Below are positions 1 to 45,230 of a stretch of 64,000 bases of DNA, piece by piece. Made by a program: the position numbers and the translations under genes. Every line of letters starts with the position of its first letter. Position 1 is the stretch's first letter. The notes under the pieces were generated by a model, which ran no database searches, was not told where the DNA came from, and was given only the letters and a program-made list of their open reading frames with translations. This DNA comes from Escherichia phage PhaxI: the sequence record JN673056. One strand, given 5' to 3'.

Positions 1-45
1 TTTGGATCTCAGACATCACTAATTTCCCCCAATATTATGGAGTAT

Positions 46-2468: not shown

Positions 2469-3197
2469 TTATTTCAGGGATTCTTTTAATGCTGGAGTCC
2501 CTATTTTGTCAATAACACCTCCGGCGCACAGATCTTTAGCCCATTCCGCGAGCACGTTAGCAAAAGAGAAATTCAAGCACTCTTTGATCATACTTTCAAT
2601 ATGAGCAAGTTCTGCAGCTATCCCATCGGTGATATCGTTTATAACTCCATTGACGGCGGTTATTGCCTCATTGATATGTCCTGTTACTTCAGCAGCCAAT
2701 TGCTGTAGTTTTGCCATCCCTTCTGAGGCACCTTCCATAATCATGTCATACAATTCCGATATCTTGTTAGTCACAGTCTGGAGAGCGCCTTCCATAGCAT
2801 TCAGCCATTGGCGTCCTAAATCCTGAACAACACCAAAAGCCTTGTTGATCAGATCACAATTGTTTGGTTCCCGTGATATACTTTTCAAACCTGATTTATA
2901 TGAAACGGAAGTCCCAATTCTTGAATACGCTTCATTTACACTCTGGTCGCCATATGTGTTCAGTGTCGTTATCCCCGTGTTGGCAGAGCTATACATGTTT
3001 GTGGCTGCTGTAAGTTTATCTGGTGTTAATCCACCTGCTGACATAGCCACCTGCATCTCCGGAGTCGCGTTGGCAGTTATCAATGGTATATTGGTACTAC
3101 CACTGGTGATTAAATCCTGTGAGGGACCGGAGAGGGACGGAAGCGGGTTGCTAAATGCATTACCAGAGGAAAGGACATCGTAGATTTGTGCGTTCAT
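2469..3197 (-). CDS. hypothetical protein
   Basis: 242-aa ORF; ATG start; late-promoter-like palindrome immediately upstream (3198-3228). Confidence 0.5.
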   Translation of the reverse strand: MNAQIYDVLSSGNAFSNPLPSLSGPSQDLITSGSTNIPLITANATPEMQVAMSAGGLTPDKLTAATNMYSSANTGITTLNTYGDQSVNEAYSRIGTSVSYKSGLKSISREPNNCDLINKAFGVVQDLGRQWLNAMEGALQTVTNKISELYDMIMEGASEGMAKLQQLAAEVTGHINEAITAVNGVINDITDGIAAELAHIESMIKECLNFSFANVLAEWAKDLCAGGVIDKIGTPALKESLK

Positions 3198-3227
3198 AAA
3201 AATACCCCCAATTTTGGGGGTATTTAA

Positions 3228-3422
3228 TCATGGTAGATGATAAATAAAGTTTTCCGAGAACTTTTTGGCAAACTTCTTCAGAAAGATGAATTTGGGGTCA
3301 CGTGGGATACCCTTCATGTCATCTAAAGTAATAAAACAGATGCGCGCCATGAAGTACATGGTAAATGCGACACAAAGCACCAACAGTATTTGTAACATGG
3401 TATAACTCCTCATGGGTGGCAA
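3228..3422 (-). CDS. small hydrophobic protein
   Basis: 64-aa ORF with a predicted transmembrane stretch. Confidence 0.3.
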   Translation of the reverse strand: MPPMRSYTMLQILLVLCVAFTMYFMARICFITLDDMKGIPRDPKFIFLKKFAKKFSENFIYHLP

Positions 3423-39766: not shown

Positions 39767-40336
39767 ATGCACATTAACACAGCAATCATGAAACACATTA
39801 TTCCTTTATTGGCAAAATACGAAGGGGAACGTGCCACGAAAATCCCTTTTGGAACAATCACAGATGAAGTGAAACGCCTGACGGGTAAAAGTATCAATTT
39901 CCGTCGCGTTGTTGAATCTGCGTTAGAGTTGGCCCGTTCTGATTTACAAAATCCAACATTTTCATTTAATATTGACGTAACTTCTTCACTTCGACAAGAA
40001 TTGGAAGAATCATCACAAGCGCGGCGCGATCGTTTCCGTCATTTATATGTTCGTAACGAATTTTCCGAAGGTCGTGTTGGTATGAAACTGGAGTCTATTC
40101 GTTCTGATATTTGCTTCACTGTCAACTATGTTTTAGAGCCAGAGAGCCAGCGCATTTATTTTGGCGCGATTATCGGTTTCTATGGGAACTATATTAATGG
40201 TTGGGCAGAACGTGTTGGAATAAAAGAAACCCAGAACAATCATTCCACACCTTCTACCCATTATATGACGCATGAAGCTGCTGGCGAATATGTTTACCTT
40301 CTGCGTCGTGTTGTGAAGTTAGAAGTGTTAAAATAA
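39767..40336 (+). CDS. hypothetical protein
   Basis: 189-aa ORF diverging from the structural block. Confidence 0.5.
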   Translation: MHINTAIMKHIIPLLAKYEGERATKIPFGTITDEVKRLTGKSINFRRVVESALELARSDLQNPTFSFNIDVTSSLRQELEESSQARRDRFRHLYVRNEFSEGRVGMKLESIRSDICFTVNYVLEPESQRIYFGAIIGFYGNYINGWAERVGIKETQNNHSTPSTHYMTHEAAGEYVYLLRRVVKLEVLK

Positions 40337-40393
40337 CGCTTTATTCAATAAATAATTGTAGTAAAGTTAGTTGCATGGAAGGGAGGGAACACT

Positions 40394-40540
40394 ATGTTTT
40401 ACATGATGTTACTCCTCATCCTCCTGATCGGGATTACCTGCTCTCTCCTGGGTCTACCCGATCAGTCCGGTAAACAGTTGCCCACTTCGGCGCATCCGGT
40501 TTTGAGTGAAGGTTCGTCCGCACTGCTGTGGGCAGTGTAG
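40394..40540 (+). CDS. small hydrophobic peptide (48 aa), not in ORF track
   Basis: ATG at 40394 preceded by strong SD GGAGGG; MFYMMLLLILLIGITCSLLG signal-like N-terminus; sits at the start of the RNA island. Confidence 0.3.
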   Translation: MFYMMLLLILLIGITCSLLGLPDQSGKQLPTSAHPVLSEGSSALLWAV

Positions 40541-42811
40541 CTCAAAGGGGAGAGGACTTTTCAAATTAGCTGGGCTGCGGTAAAGTATTAAACACGAGGG
40601 AAATAACACAGTGGGAGTCGGGTTTGCAGCCCAAAACCAGTTAACCCTATTCTCAGGGCTGTTGATAGAGCGTAATAGCACCCTCGCTGGTGTCAGTGGA
40701 CGCACTGACGTCGAGACGAAACTCCTGTGTAGCGTGATAGCTCAGAAAACGAGAGCACCCGTGCAGTCGACACACATATAAGGGAGTCGGGGCGCTAATC
40801 TCCATCACGCGACAACATTATGAATCTCATAGAGGGTTCATAATGTTGCGTCAAAGGGCAACAAGAGGATTCCTGTTGGTTGAATTAACTTGATTCATAG
40901 TTCTGCTGATCTTCCCGGATTCAGAAGAACACCGACAGGACGAGGCCGGATGCGTAAGTTCCGGCAAATCGATGGTGAGGTGGTGCATTGATGACACGGG
41001 GTAGCGCTCAGAAGTGTGGTTCGATTCCGCACCCTCGCCAACAAAAATAAAAGGTTTTATCAATAACGGGTTACAAAGTATAGTTAACTCACTGAACGGC
41101 AAGCTGTTTGAGTCCTGGCCACTCATAGCGATGTGAGACCAAGACAGGTAGGTTTAGGACTCAAACAGGTTTTCGTTCTCGTTGCTTGCGACTTTGCGGG
41201 TTTTTAGAAACTGACCAAGCAAATAACTGCTAATGATTCCGAAGTTCTGATGGCGGCGTAATAGCCTATAAGTCAGTGAGGTCTTCCGATTCCTCATAAC
41301 AAAATTCGGCGCACTAAAATAGGCGGGAGGGTGTGATTAATAAGCTCCCGCCGAACAATGAGCGGAGCGTGTACTTAATAGGTCGATGGGAGCAGACTAC
41401 TTCTGAGAAATCAGGAGCGTACATGAGAAGGTTCGAGTCCTTCCTCCAATCCCAAAGCCGTTATATCTGACTGTCCAAAGGGGATAAGCTCCTGAGTAAG
41501 CAGAGGTGGGTTGCCTAAGTCAGATGGGATGTAAGGTCAGCGCTGGCTAAGCATTTGGGTTCGACTCCCTAAAGCGGCTCCACATCTTTGAGGGCATTCC
41601 GCGTCAGACGCGAGACTGTATGGAGTTTCAGGAGAAAGGCAACTTAAATCCGAGGCAGTAATGCCCTATGAAATATCGGAGCCTGTTGTACACTGAGTGC
41701 CCTCAAAGATGTGTCTCACAGCGCATCAGTTTGCAGTTATGCAAGCTTCAATAAGTTAAAACGCGCCTCGGGCGTTATGGGATAAAGCCTTAAACAGTGG
41801 AATCCCCAGGGCTAGCAATCCCTGTCAAAGAAGTAGCCGTGTGGGGGTTTGCCCCCACAACGCAAATCGAAGTTCTTTGGGTATATCTTTTAACCCTCAA
41901 GGTCTGTACACAGAAGTGGCCGTCCCATGAGTAAGTTAGGCGATATACAACATGTTGGGTCGAACCTGTTAAGCCCAGAGAACTTCGATTTGCGTACTTG
42001 AGAGAGCGTTGTATGAAATAGGGCAATGCCTTGCAGACCTCGACGCCTACACATTCTAGACACTGGTGGGCGCTGGCGAAGATCTCAATATAAGCTGGTC
42101 ATCAAGGGTAGCTCCCTGACCGGACGAACAATGAGAGGCCGAACTAAGGGGAAACCCGAGACAGGCGCAGTATTTTCAAGTTCGCAAAATGAAGAGCATT
42201 AAAGAACTCGCAAAGGACCTGAAAATTGGTATCCCTGGCTTGTACCACTGAGTGTTCTTCATCTTTGGGTGATTCTATGTTGTCGGGCTATCAACCCATG
42301 CTTGCTGGAGCAACCAGCGGCTCTGAATCAACCAGCCAGCCTCGTTTGGTCCGAGCGTTAGAGGACAAGTTGCTTCTGTATGGAAGCTGCGAGTTGTAAC
42401 ATTTGGTTGCAACTTTGATGGCTCTGGATTTTATAAACCATGTCTATGGGTGACGCGGGATCTTTAGTACCAGAGCCATCAAAGTTGTGTCCAACCCGAT
42501 CTTGCAAGCCCGTATCCCTGTATGGTCAAGACTTGCAAGTGGAAAGCCCTGGAAAAATAAACGCCTGTGGTGAGGCTACGGTGCAAGCCAAAGACCCACA
42601 GAAGCGCGTTGCCGTGAGGCGCACAAACAGGCATGCATGAACTGATCATGCACAAACGGGATAAATGGTTGAGAGACCTTGGTTGGTCACACAATAAATT
42701 ATGGGGCGATAGTTTAAGGGACAGCTGTCCGGACAGCGAGTCCCCAGAGAGAACAGGCTGGCGGCCAAACCAGCAAGGAGAGGTGAAAATCCTCAGACCC
42801 CGCCAAATTTT
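40541..42811 (+). ncRNA. ORF-poor structured region with tRNA 3'-half-like modules and long hairpins; candidate large structured RNA(s) or degenerate tRNA-like genes
   Basis: No credible ORF on either strand for about 2.3 kb; T-arm+acceptor+CCA modules near 41015-41040, 41427-41454, 41555-41582, 42779-42805; GAAA-capped 7-bp helix at 41400-41417; 12-18 bp perfect inverted repeats. Confidence 0.35.
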
Positions 42812-42837
42812 GGCCCCGTAGCTCAGTGGTTAGAGCA
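42812..42837 (+). other. tRNA 5' fragment (acceptor strand plus D-arm) without a matching 3' half
   Basis: GGCCCCG-TA-GCTC-AGTGGTTA-GAGC is a canonical acceptor/D-arm, but no anticodon arm or complementary 3' acceptor strand follows; abuts the endonuclease gene. Confidence 0.5.
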
Positions 42838-42874
42838 GACTAAGTAATACCATGTGTGTTGATTGGTATTACTT

Positions 42875-43516
42875 ATGAAAACTTGTGAATTTTGCTCAAG
42901 GGATTTTGGGACCGTACAAGCATTTTGTTCTCATGTGCGACAGTGTAAACAAAATCCAGACAGAATAATAAGAAACAGGTCTGGGGTTAATAATCCCATG
43001 TATGGTAGGAAGGGTAGTAATCAATTCACCAAAGCTATAAAGTTGGGTTTGGAACCACCTAAAGTTAGGGAAGAAACTTCCCGCGCTATATCCGAAAAAT
43101 TAAAAGGAAAGGCGTGGACACAGGAAAGAAGAGAATCCTTTTCTATGAGGATGAAGGAAATCGTAAAAGAAAATCCTGATTCCTATAGTAGCCACAATGT
43201 GTGTGGTAGGTCAAAAAAGTTTGTGATAGACGGGGTTTTATTTCATTCTTCTTGGGAAGTGGTCTTTGCCAATTATTTGAATAAAAGGTCTTTGGCCTGG
43301 GTGAGAGAAGTAGAATCGATACCTTATATTTGGAAAGGTAAACAGCATTTATACTTTCCTGATTTTTACATACCGGAGTTGGATATGTATGTAGAAGTCA
43401 AGGGGTATGAAACGGAAAGAGATCATGCTAAATGGAGTTGCATTGATAATTTGATAATAATCAGGGAAACTGAGATAAATAAAATTATCTCTGGTGAAAT
43501 TATTTCGGGTCTGTAG
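42875..43516 (+). CDS. homing endonuclease-like protein (zinc finger, NUMOD-like motifs, PD-(D/E)xK-like C-terminus)
   Basis: ATG at 42875; CEFCSRDFG...CSHVRQC finger; NPMYGRKGSNQ and ETSRAISEKLKGK motifs; C-terminal FPDF...ELDMYVEVKG nuclease-like motif; stop overlaps the 5' end of tRNA-Met. Confidence 0.55.
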   Translation: MKTCEFCSRDFGTVQAFCSHVRQCKQNPDRIIRNRSGVNNPMYGRKGSNQFTKAIKLGLEPPKVREETSRAISEKLKGKAWTQERRESFSMRMKEIVKENPDSYSSHNVCGRSKKFVIDGVLFHSSWEVVFANYLNKRSLAWVREVESIPYIWKGKQHLYFPDFYIPELDMYVEVKGYETERDHAKWSCIDNLIIIRETEINKIISGEIISGL

Positions 43517-43583
43517 TTTAATAGGTTAGAACAACGGACTCATAATCCGTCAGGTCTCAGTTCAAATCTGGGTGGACCCACCA
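43507..43583 (+). tRNA. tRNA-Met (anticodon CAT); could equally be initiator or lysidine-modified Ile type
   Basis: Hand-folded cloverleaf: acceptor GGGTCTG/TGGACCC, D-stem GTTT/GAAC, anticodon stem ACGGA/TCCGT with loop CTCATAA, T-arm CTCAG-TTCAAAT-CTGGG, discriminator A, encoded CCA. Confidence 0.85.
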
Positions 43584-44140: not shown

Positions 44141-44824
44141 AATTGAAGTAGAGTATCTCGAAGCGCCTTCGGAAGTGCGAATCGCGCGATAGCTGCCAAT
44201 GTAAGGCTGCAGGATACAGATACCCAGGGGAGTGAGACCTACTTCATACAATTTCAGAAGTGTAGAGGCTACAGTAGTGCGCACCTCACGGAAAGCTACA
44301 CCGGACACTCTGATACAAATCTACCACCGCGTGGATTAGCTGAGGAAGGATGGCCGATGTCCTCAAGCGTGGCCCAGCACGTGGTGGTAGACCAAACACA
44401 GTAAGCGTTGCAGCCAGCTGTGTATAAAATGGGGTGACTCCACATCGGAAACGATGCCCCAACTTCCAGAAATGGTCGGGCGCGAAGCCTGTAAAGTTCC
44501 AGGAGATCTAACCAGAAGGCACTGGTGCCAGTTAACCAATCGGCGCTGATAAGCGCGGGGAGTTGGGCTACGGCAGATCAAATGCACAATCGGGTGTGAA
44601 GCCCGTCCAAATTACGCTCGGTCAAGCAGTCTGTTTGTAGACGGTCGGTGCGGGTTTTGCAAGACCCAAATTGACCATCAAATAGATGAGGCGCGACTCT
44701 CTGGGTTGATCACCAGGGTGCTGAGGTTCAACCCCTCTAACGGACACCAATAAGTCGTTTCGGTCAGGTCAAGAACCCAGATTTAGGTCATGGCTTGGAA
44801 ATTCTTGACCGAAGCGCAGTATAC

Positions 44825-45002: not shown

Positions 45003-45230
45003 TCAGAATAATGAGTGTGACTTCCTGAAGATGAAGAAGGTGTGCATGCCGACTTCATAACAATCTGGGGTTAAAGGAAGTTAAGAAAGCCGGAGGATAT
45101 GCAAAGGTGAAATGCAATAGCTTTTCATTGTCCTGACGGTTTCGGGTTCGATTCCCGACGCACTCTCCCAAACGCCCATTATCAGAAATTGCTGTGAGTA
45201 GTCTTTCCATCCCCACGATGGTTTAACATA

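Follow-up and report, generated by a model that had tools for sequence, protein, structure and literature searches.

A long RNA hairpin with selected pairing and a dispensable loop belongs to a paralogous family in an untranslated RNA cluster of Ackermannviridae phages

The inverted repeat I1 of Escherichia phage PhaxI (sequence record JN673056) was analyzed within a window of 64,000 nucleotides, the whole stretch of DNA under study. Comparative analysis showed that the repeat encodes a predicted + strand RNA helix of 20–23 bp, the pairing of which has evidently been kept by selection, and that the loop of the hairpin is dispensable. I1 is real, non-random, and under selection. Furthermore, I1 was shown to be a member of a paralogous family of long hairpins that punctuates an untranslated cluster of ~2.3 kb in all Ackermannviridae genera examined. 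The explanation that we favor, tentatively and at a little less than even confidence, is that the I1 duplex has a processing or insulating role as a double-stranded part of a long precursor, where it would probably be cut by RNase III.

The arms of the repeat, CAACTTTGATGGCTCTGG (42410–42427) and CCAGAGCCATCAAAGTTG (42470–42487), are exact reverse complements with 42 nt between them, as the original prediction had stated, and the two further stems that it named were exact as well (12 bp at 40813–40824/40837–40848 and 13 bp at 41104–41116/41156–41168). A perfect stem of this length had been held improbable by chance, and the shuffle control agreed. In 300 dinucleotide-preserving shuffles of the island (40350–42820), perfect inverted repeats whose loops did not exceed 100 nt had a maximum length of 7–13 bp, compared with 18 bp in the phage, and 14 bp was reached in 0 of the 300. 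Across the 64-kb window, the 18-bp repeat was the longest perfect hairpin, and the runners-up had 13 bp. With wobble pairs included, the I1 helix comprises 20 bp (42408–42427/42470–42489), and an outer UGG/CCA pairing (42404–42406/42491–42493) is possible across a small internal loop. The calculated folding energy of the hairpin RNA was −46.3 kcal/mol, with a z score of −8.2 relative to shuffled sequences.

The I1 alignment covered four genera (Kuttervirus, Taipeivirus, Agtrevirus, and Limestonevirus) with 15 distinct sequences, in which the stem was 99.1% paired and helix 1 was 98.5% paired. Both-side changes were found at seven stem pairs, such as U-A to C-G, U-A to G-C, G-C to A-U, and U-A to A-U. 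The covariation score was matched in 0 of 500 column shuffles, and pairing fell to 31–44% when the partner strand was slid by 1–3 columns. Comparative alignment had been proposed as the check on the repeat, with loss of complementarity in relatives as the adverse outcome; complementarity was instead kept via compensatory changes in the four genera, and the same changes bear out the reading of the repeat as structured RNA. Many I1 pairs are G·U on the + strand only and would be A·C on the opposite strand, and the I1 covariance model scored 98 bits on the + strand and 55 bits on the − strand. These results indicate that the I1 RNA has the same direction as the tRNAs, and they leave a DNA recombination site, which the original reading had offered as another option, unsupported. 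The processing role offered alongside it is plausible.

Conservation was distributed unevenly along the hairpin. The loop, which has 42 nt here, was 35–37 nt long in Taipeivirus and Agtrevirus, 52 nt long at two other loci, and only 4 nt long, of GAAA type, in Dickeya phage LIMEstone1. Within it, the motif UAUGGGUGAC was semi-conserved in three genera; a long-range partner for this motif was sought, and none was found. The base of the stem was invariant in sequence, beyond mere pairing (CAACU.UGA/UCA.AGUUG). The positions of I1 and of the features around it are collected in Table 1.

Table 1 Features of the untranslated RNA cluster, with positions given in the 64,000-nt window
Feature	Position	Strand	Description
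Untranslated RNA cluster	40541–42810	+	Between 48-aa ORF (phrog_8415) and tRNA genes; mosaic between genera
I5, long hairpin	41094–41178	+	17–23 bp; immediately upstream of tmRNA-tag-like module
I4, I1 paralogue	41581–41713	+	20–21 bp stem CACAUCUUUGAGGGCA.../...UGCCCUCAAAGAUGUG; begins at CCA end of tRNA-like module
I2, long hairpin	41860–41995	+	25 of 26 positions paired; 84-nt loop
Left anchor, conserved 5′ segment CAGCCUCGUUUGGUCCGAGCGUUAGAGGACAAGU	42335–42370	+	36 nt; present even in Erwinia phage Bue1
P0, small hairpin	42372–42387	+	Lineage-variable sequence; 4–8 bp fold in 10 of 10 distinct versions
X–Y alternative hairpin	42391–42415	+	X GAGUUGUAAC (42391–42400) pairs with Y GUUGCAACUU (42406–42415)
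I1 5′ strand	42408–42427	+	Perfect 18 nt at 42410–42427; U42408 and G42409 give two wobble pairs
I1 loop, 42 nt	42428–42469	+	Dispensable, length-variable; partly conserved UAUGGGUGAC
I1 3′ strand	42470–42489	+	Perfect 18 nt at 42470–42487; terminal family motif AGUUGUG
D2, closed multi-helix RNA domain	42490–42687	+	~200 nt; directly 3′ of I1
D2 P1	42491–42496/42681–42686	+	Closing helix CCAACC/GGUUGG
D2 P2	42501–42508/42532–42539	+	
D2 P3	42548–42551/42657–42660	+	
D2 P4	42560–42570/42596–42610	+	
D2 P7	42634–42640/42646–42652	+	

PhaxI belongs to the genus Kuttervirus (Ackermannviridae), and the region is 96% identical to that of Salmonella phage PST-D24. The "2 kb RNA island" in which the repeat had been placed held up: no ORF of at least 100 aa was present between 40541 and 42862, and the region was conserved in 280–410 phage records. 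A conserved 189-aa protein with no function assigned and the 48-aa ORF lie upstream of the cluster, and the genes for tRNA Met, Asn, and Ser lie downstream. A gap of ~1.7–2.5 kb occupies the equivalent place in Kuttervirus, Taipeivirus, Agtrevirus, Limestonevirus, Miltonvirus, and Nezavisimistyvirus, and in the records it is either left blank or annotated with short "hypothetical proteins." Along the island, long hairpins and conserved modules alternate, with conserved modules on both sides of I1, and endonuclease genes have been inserted at differing places in different phages. Wider scans yielded 19 loci in IMG/VR, almost all of them known isolates, and two close relatives in metagenomes, and the I1–D2 region had 0 matches in 5,426 complete E. 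coli genomes. In the literature searched, no description of RNAs from this region was found.

The scan detected no terminator-like site on the + strand between the island and position 45230, and the promoter-like matches were weak (15 compared with 8.8 ± 3.0 expected) and not clearly above chance. These observations make a single precursor spanning the island and the tRNAs plausible. In the explanation that we favor, the cluster and the tRNAs would be transcribed as this one long precursor, and the I1 duplex of about two turns would serve in it for processing and insulation as a double-stranded module; host RNase III would most likely cut it, or it would be used as a terminal clamp. I1 would thereby keep the upstream sRNA-like modules apart from the 200-nt D2 domain and tRNA-Met and would block mispairing of neighbors. 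Substrates of RNase III have ~20 bp or more of largely uninterrupted double-stranded RNA, and all I1 variants provided 18–22 stacked pairs, or approximately two helical turns, interrupted in LIMEstone1 by a single internal mismatch. The other long hairpins of the island behaved like I1, in that stems were kept and loops replaced.

The immediate surroundings of I1 are also structured. STnc100-like modules of some phages form an insertion just 3′ of the left anchor; Klebsiella phage P01 and Shigella phage ChubbyThor carry an extra module between the left anchor and P0, and that of P01 passed the threshold set by Rfam for STnc100, a prophage sRNA. On the other side, D2 had 52 predicted pairs, 13 of which showed both-side changes, including pairs of the closing helix. 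D2 was conserved in Serratia phage 3M, where its end lies 13 nt before tRNA-Met. No match to D2 was found in Rfam, and its core motif was absent from 185,579 species-representative genomes (GTDB) save one 526-bp contig. Two other arrangements were rejected. The single-sequence minimum-energy fold proposed a long-range helix (42262–42348 with 42653–42750) closing a domain of ~500 nt, of which the 5′ segment is missing in CBA120 and most relatives and the two halves are separated by tRNA-Met in several phages. Replacement of the hairpin by a tRNA-like 3′ end in Serratia phage 3M was likewise ruled out, as an I1-like hairpin is present ~240 nt farther upstream.

The proximity of I1 to D2 bears on a second explanation, which we consider unlikely. 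I1 might be an uncut structural arm of a larger noncoding RNA comprising the left anchor, P0, I1, and D2 (~350 nt, 42335–42687), in which it would stack on P1 as a scaffold or protein-binding arm, and the function of this RNA would be linked to tRNA-Met. I1 ends 1 nt before P1, D2 is a closed domain well supported by its 13 covarying pairs, and the left anchor, I1, and D2 co-occur in four genera; the sequence conservation of the stem base would suit such an arm, and the ROOL and GOLLD RNAs are precedents for large, ornate RNAs beside phage tRNA genes. However, other observations count against this explanation. In Serratia phage 3M, the I1-like hairpin (L008, 3148–3250) and D2 (from ~3492) are ~240 nt apart with the tRNA-like 3′ end between them, the left anchor and a family hairpin are present in Bue1 without D2, and hairpins of this type recur beside unrelated modules. 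These three observations suggest that I1 is a self-contained unit.

The recurrence of the hairpin type was analyzed with one scan, which found four long hairpins in the island of this window (17–25 paired positions; loops of 35–91 nt) and two to eight in each relative examined. In the long hairpins that were checked, stems were kept through compensatory change and loops were swapped wholesale. The I4 stem covaried and was perfect in SeF3a and EspM4VN despite many substitutions, and the length of its loop ranged from 4 nt in Klebsiella phage P01 to 91 nt here. The I2 hairpin of Agtrevirus differed at many positions on both strands and retained its pairing; the I2 loop in the window ends with a degenerate T-arm-like GGGUCGAACC. 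I1 and I4 have stem sequence in common (CAACUUUGAUGGC compared with CAUCUUUGAGGGC), and Taipeivirus I1 was identical to SeF3a I4 at 16 of 19 positions. Furthermore, a model built solely from I1 sequences recovered additional hairpins (3M, E = 1.7e-5; EspM4VN I4a, 7e-5; SeF3a I4, 9e-4), and unrelated long hairpins were not recovered by it. When eight family hairpins from five genera were aligned, invariant positions were present in both strands, and the consensus was 5′ CAYAWCU..GAGGrCAyUG ... CAGUGyCCUC..AGWURUG 3′.

Some members of the family carry features of tRNA. A canonical T-arm (GGTTCRAnTCC) was located 4–7 nt before the 3′ strand in four members (one in L005, two in L007, and one in L009), and the predicted fold of these members was a cloverleaf-like body on a stem of ~20 bp; ARAGORN at default settings called none of them as tRNAs. 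The body of the T-arm-bearing Bue1 hairpin aligned with the I1 loop, which has a GCGGG-AUCUUUAG stretch resembling a decayed T-arm at the expected place. We infer that each family stem represents an extended acceptor-type (leader/trailer) stem from a tRNA-like cassette and that the I1 loop is a tRNA-like body that has decayed to 42 nt here and to a tetraloop in LIMEstone1. Decay of this kind would make the duplex itself the functional part. A more far-reaching proposal, which we regard as doubtful, is that I1 is a unit of a phage stable-RNA cassette array. Long-stem tRNA-like elements, each with an acceptor-type stem of ~20 bp and the base motif CAYAWC/GWURUG, with or without a cloverleaf-like body, would bracket exchangeable tmRNA-tag-like, tRNA-like, STnc100-like, and D2 cassettes; the stems would be read by a dedicated sequence-specific phage or host factor, and the array would manipulate host translation, RNA surveillance, or tRNA-targeting defenses.

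The base of I1 has a competing partner immediately upstream. The X–Y pairing is incompatible with the bottom 8–10 bp of I1, was 98.6% paired in relatives with two pairs showing both-side changes, and in LIMEstone1 is closed by a cUUCGg tetraloop. The calculated energies of the two conformations, X–Y and I1, were nearly equal in the window (−30.8 compared with −30.9 kcal/mol) and close in LIMEstone1 (−27.0 compared with −24.2 kcal/mol). This pairing may be a switch, an intermediate of folding, or a by-product. A conformational switch, in which 42406–42415 would pair with either X (42391–42400) or the 3′ strand (42480–42489) and so control how D2 and tRNA-Met fold or are processed, for instance through release of AGUUGUGU for extension of P1, seems improbable to us. 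Conservation exceeds 98% for both pairings, and each includes pairs changed on both sides, but X resembles the I1 3′ strand, and the X–Y complementarity could be a mere consequence of this resemblance; support for X–Y that is independent of I1 amounts essentially to a single change within one clade (columns 13/21, four Agtrevirus-type sequences). The equal energies in the window, the close ones in LIMEstone1, and the tetraloop of the latter would suit a switch, whereas L011 has no X and no ligand or effector is evident.

These features also bear on the favored explanation, I1 as a processing or insulating stem. The equal-energy, covarying upstream pairing is less easily reconciled with a simple cleavage site than with a switch or a folding pathway. 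The semi-conservation of the loop motif UAUGGGUGAC in three genera is a further point against the favored explanation. Together, the invariant base, the motif shared with paralogues, and the X–Y competitor are points against a pure RNase III site and would fit a sequence-specific partner or a switch. Such a partner of I1 is possible because the invariant stem base is not needed by RNase III alone.

The number of hairpins per genome has a bearing on a decoy or sponge role, which we judge quite improbable. Abundant stable double-stranded or tRNA-like RNAs would act by titrating a host factor, for example RNase III, a tRNA-targeting defense nuclease, or a tRNA-modifying or tRNA-binding protein. 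Several long duplexes per genome lie in one putative transcription unit with tRNA-like, tmRNA-tag-like, and sRNA-like modules, and the motif common to the hairpins suggests one shared binding partner. Nevertheless, this role is conjectural, and the frequent loss of tRNA-like bodies while stems persist argues against tRNA mimicry as the selected feature of I1. An element acting at the DNA level, be it a recombination site in cruciform or single-strand hairpin form, a target for a homing endonuclease, or a pair of terminal inverted repeats bounding a small mobile element, would accord with the mosaic island, the endonuclease genes at varying places, and the sequence swaps in long-hairpin loops, but it is very improbable given that G·U (G·T) pairs are confined to one strand with A·C on the other, that the I1 arms are not homology breakpoints, that the 5,426 E. 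coli genomes contain no copies and the rest of the window none besides I4, that no presence/absence polymorphism of the whole element was seen in the four genera with an alignable site, and that direct reading of the sequence shows no attC-type boxes (RYYYAAC/GTTRRRY).

I1 was also compared with known families and classes. Rfam at gathering thresholds identified the three tRNAs only. At E ≤ 10 over 40300–43000, Rfam microRNA models matched I1 on both strands, which is a palindrome effect; the best match, mir-3119, scored 28.8 bits against a gathering threshold of 80 bits and likewise matched both strands. I1 itself was not a tRNA or tRNA-like RNA, as no T-loop (GTTCRANYC on a 5-bp stem) was found in its loop and ARAGORN reported nothing even at the relaxed -ps80 setting. 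An intrinsic terminator was ruled out by the absence of I1 from the terminator scan and by UGUCCAACCCGAUC, which follows the 3′ arm. A REP-, ERIC-, or MITE-type repeat was rejected on the basis of 0 matches in 5,426 E. coli genomes and the same site in all four alignable genera; within the window, matches to the hairpin arms with at most two mismatches were confined to I1 and I4. The base of I1 (UUGCAAC/GUUGUGU) misfits the integron attC boxes RYYYAAC/GTTRRRY, and no integrase was present among the neighbors scanned. Some records list the overlapping ORFs at 42440–42640 (+) and 42358–42507 (−) as "hypothetical proteins." CBA120 lacks the ATG (CCAAGTC), the frame over I1 is broken by loop indels of −38, −7, −5, and +10 nt, and the substitutions are compensatory for pairing; because the indels are not multiples of three and the ATG is lost, coding by these ORFs was ruled out.

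By analogy, the closest functional counterpart of I1 would be a processing stem for RNase III or an intervening sequence of the rRNA type. RNase III cuts stems of ~20 bp that flank the 16S and 23S rRNAs, and it also cuts T7 early RNAs and the species I RNA of the T4 tRNA cluster. Like these stems, I1 has about two turns of double-stranded RNA between stable RNAs in what would be a long precursor, with selected pairing and an irrelevant loop. Unlike them, it has a conserved base sequence shared with paralogues, some of which have tRNA-like bodies, as well as a competing pairing, and its cleavage is a proposal. The intervening sequences of enterobacterial 23S rRNA similarly show either a tetraloop, as in LIMEstone1, or a variable insert on a conserved helix and are sporadic in occurrence; the host RNA of I1 is not rRNA, and excision is only an analogy here.

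The cluster as a whole is most similar to the stable-RNA/tRNA clusters found in T4-like phages or to the combined tRNA-like and hairpin units known from murine gammaherpesvirus 68. The stable RNAs of the T4 tRNA cluster (species 1 and 2) are also small structured RNAs beside phage tRNA genes and are presumably co-processed with them, but no sequence or Rfam relationship was detected, and the present cluster is far larger (~2.3 kb), mosaic, and punctuated by hairpins. In the TMERs of murine gammaherpesvirus 68, tRNA-like units are followed by hairpins of ~20 bp, much as the module ending at 41582 directly precedes I4. The TMERs differ in belonging to a eukaryotic virus, in their transcription by polymerase III, and in their processing by tRNase Z and Dicer; we know of no small-RNA effector pathway of the TMER type in bacteria. 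YrlA and other bacterial Y RNAs, found in enterobacteria and phages, likewise combine a long terminal stem with a tRNA-like domain. However, no match to them was found in Rfam at E ≤ 10, no Ro/Rsr gene was seen nearby, and the topology differs: the T-arm here lies immediately before the long stem's 3′ strand, so that this stem is an extension of the acceptor stem, whereas the long stem of YrlA extends the anticodon stem. ROOL and GOLLD are also large noncoding RNA regions of phages beside tRNA genes with no function assigned, but no Rfam match to them was found, and the present region consists of exchangeable modules in a mosaic arrangement, without a single fixed architecture.

Phage therapy and biocontrol make wide use of Ackermannviridae phages (ViI, CBA120, LIMEstone, and relatives). 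The region described here accounts for ~1.5% of their genome and is conserved family-wide, yet in annotations it is either empty or populated by spurious "hypothetical proteins." I1 is the clearest marker of structured RNAs under selection in this region, and the surrounding cluster is of greater interest than I1 alone. The paralogous family, the dispensable loop, and the adjoining 200-nt domain go beyond the earlier observation, which was made from a single sequence. If the stems are processing sites, they would define the maturation of phage tRNA-like, tmRNA-tag-like, and sRNA-like molecules, and if a specific factor recognizes them, they would represent a new RNA–protein system.

Within the RNA cluster, the frame of the tmRNA-tag-like module reads gct aat gat tcc gaa gttt ctg atg gcg gcg taa tag and encodes ANDSEVLMAA followed by two stops. 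A stop in the same frame was found eight codons upstream of the tag, and no start codon (ATG, GTG, or TTG) was present between this stop and the tag frame. A permuted tmRNA at 40878-41352 was called by ARAGORN only at the relaxed -ps80 threshold, and the Rfam tmRNA_permuted model scored 20.9 bits on the module, below the threshold of 47. The tag module, approximately 130 nt long, was also found without annotation in unrelated phage groups at 71-84% identity (loci L029-L034), the phages being Deseoctovirus C1, Schitoviridae St11Ph5, Drexlerviridae ESP2949-1, Nonanavirus PJ16, and Klebsiella BUCT541. The tag peptide was preserved in those groups (ANDDVVLMAA and ANEERFLMAA, each with two stops; ANDDLMLMAA and ANEEMYLAVA, each with one), and four of the six loci had a TTGACA-type promoter upstream of the module. 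An alanine-type acceptor (G3·U70) matching the tag module was searched for and was not found.

Features in and around the RNA cluster (window positions unless a phage locus is named)
Feature	Location	Description
189-aa protein	39767-40336	phrog_3788; always precedes the RNA cluster
Conserved hydrophobic ORF, 48 aa	40394-40540	MFYMMLLLILLIGITCSLLG..., phrog_8415; start of the "non-coding" island
Mini tRNA-like element, 66 nt	40976-41041	GGUGAGG...GGUUCGAUUCCGCA CCUCGCC A
tmRNA-tag-like module	41179-41360	Tag frame 41230-41265; resembles the mRNA part of tmRNA
Second tRNA-like piece	41431-41455	T-arm plus CUCCAAUCCCA end
tRNA-like module, 126 nt	41457-41582	Acceptor stem, long internal helix, T-arm, encoded CCA end
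tRNA-Met gene fragment	42811 to ~42840	5' part: acceptor and D-arm
Perfect 12-bp inverted repeat	42841-42852/42864-42875	Directly after the tRNA-Met fragment
Endonuclease gene, 217 aa	42863-43516	phrog_15137; weak Phage_endo_I match
Intact tRNA-Met, different from the fragment	43507-43583	Overlaps the end of the endonuclease gene
Inserted module, Klebsiella phage P01	L002 3026-3240	After the conserved 5' segment, before the hairpin
Inserted module, Shigella phage ChubbyThor	L006 about 3030-3230	Same point; related to the P01 insert

Three tRNA-like pieces lie in the cluster. In the 126-nt module, the internal helix is formed by AUCUGACU/AGUCAGAU and the T-arm by GGGUUCGACUCCC; identity between Kuttervirus and Taipeivirus was 94-97% over the module and only 70-80% in its flanks. 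Its outermost acceptor pair covaries, being A-U in the window and U-A in phage P01, and no tRNA was called here by ARAGORN at default settings. The mini element contains U3·G70 and lacks CCA, and its acceptor in P01 and the related phage SeF3a has another sequence with the pairing kept (UGCGGUG/CACCGCA). For the second piece, no 5' partner of the T-arm was found.

At the upstream edge, the 48-aa ORF gave the only protein-family match within the RNA-cluster region. Homologues of the phrog_3788 protein were found in Ackermannviridae-like sequences only. Its AlphaFold model was confident (pLDDT 92), with no significant match to solved structures, and the protein carries an arginine-rich helix, QARRDRFRH.

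Downstream, the truncated tRNA-Met fragment was 96% identical to the intact gene in Serratia phage 3M. This arrangement looks like a homing-endonuclease insertion that would have disrupted one tRNA-Met gene and brought along its own copy. Between tRNA-Asn and tRNA-Ser, a conserved-looking hairpin was observed at 44320-44391 (14-nt arms, 93% complementary, 44-nt loop), and the long hairpins may therefore extend into the tRNA cluster.

Two database records (MN871475.1, OR844942.1), which bear the names "Pseudomonas phage Pa-sanjiao" and "Enterococcus phage Efm 3-10", shared 95-96% identity with this region of a Salmonella-type phage, and the motif of D2, the RNA domain directly 3' of the hairpin, also occurred on a 526-bp contig of a Flavobacterium poyangense assembly (L035). 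Mislabelling or contamination probably accounts for all three.

Upstream of the hairpin, UUGGUCCGAG (42345-42355) falls within the invariant segment. In animal Y RNAs, the Ro-binding helix has GGUCCGA as its conserved 5' strand. No Rfam Y RNA or YrlA model matched in the region, so the likeness of GGUCCGA in this segment may be due to chance. Between this segment and the hairpin, the P01 insert scored 53.6 bits with the Rfam model of the prophage sRNA STnc100, above its threshold of 47, and the ChubbyThor insert was not listed for it at the gathering threshold, although the two are related. The junction sequence (...GAGGACAAGU) was repeated at each insert end, suggesting that cassettes are exchanged here through recombination at the junctions.
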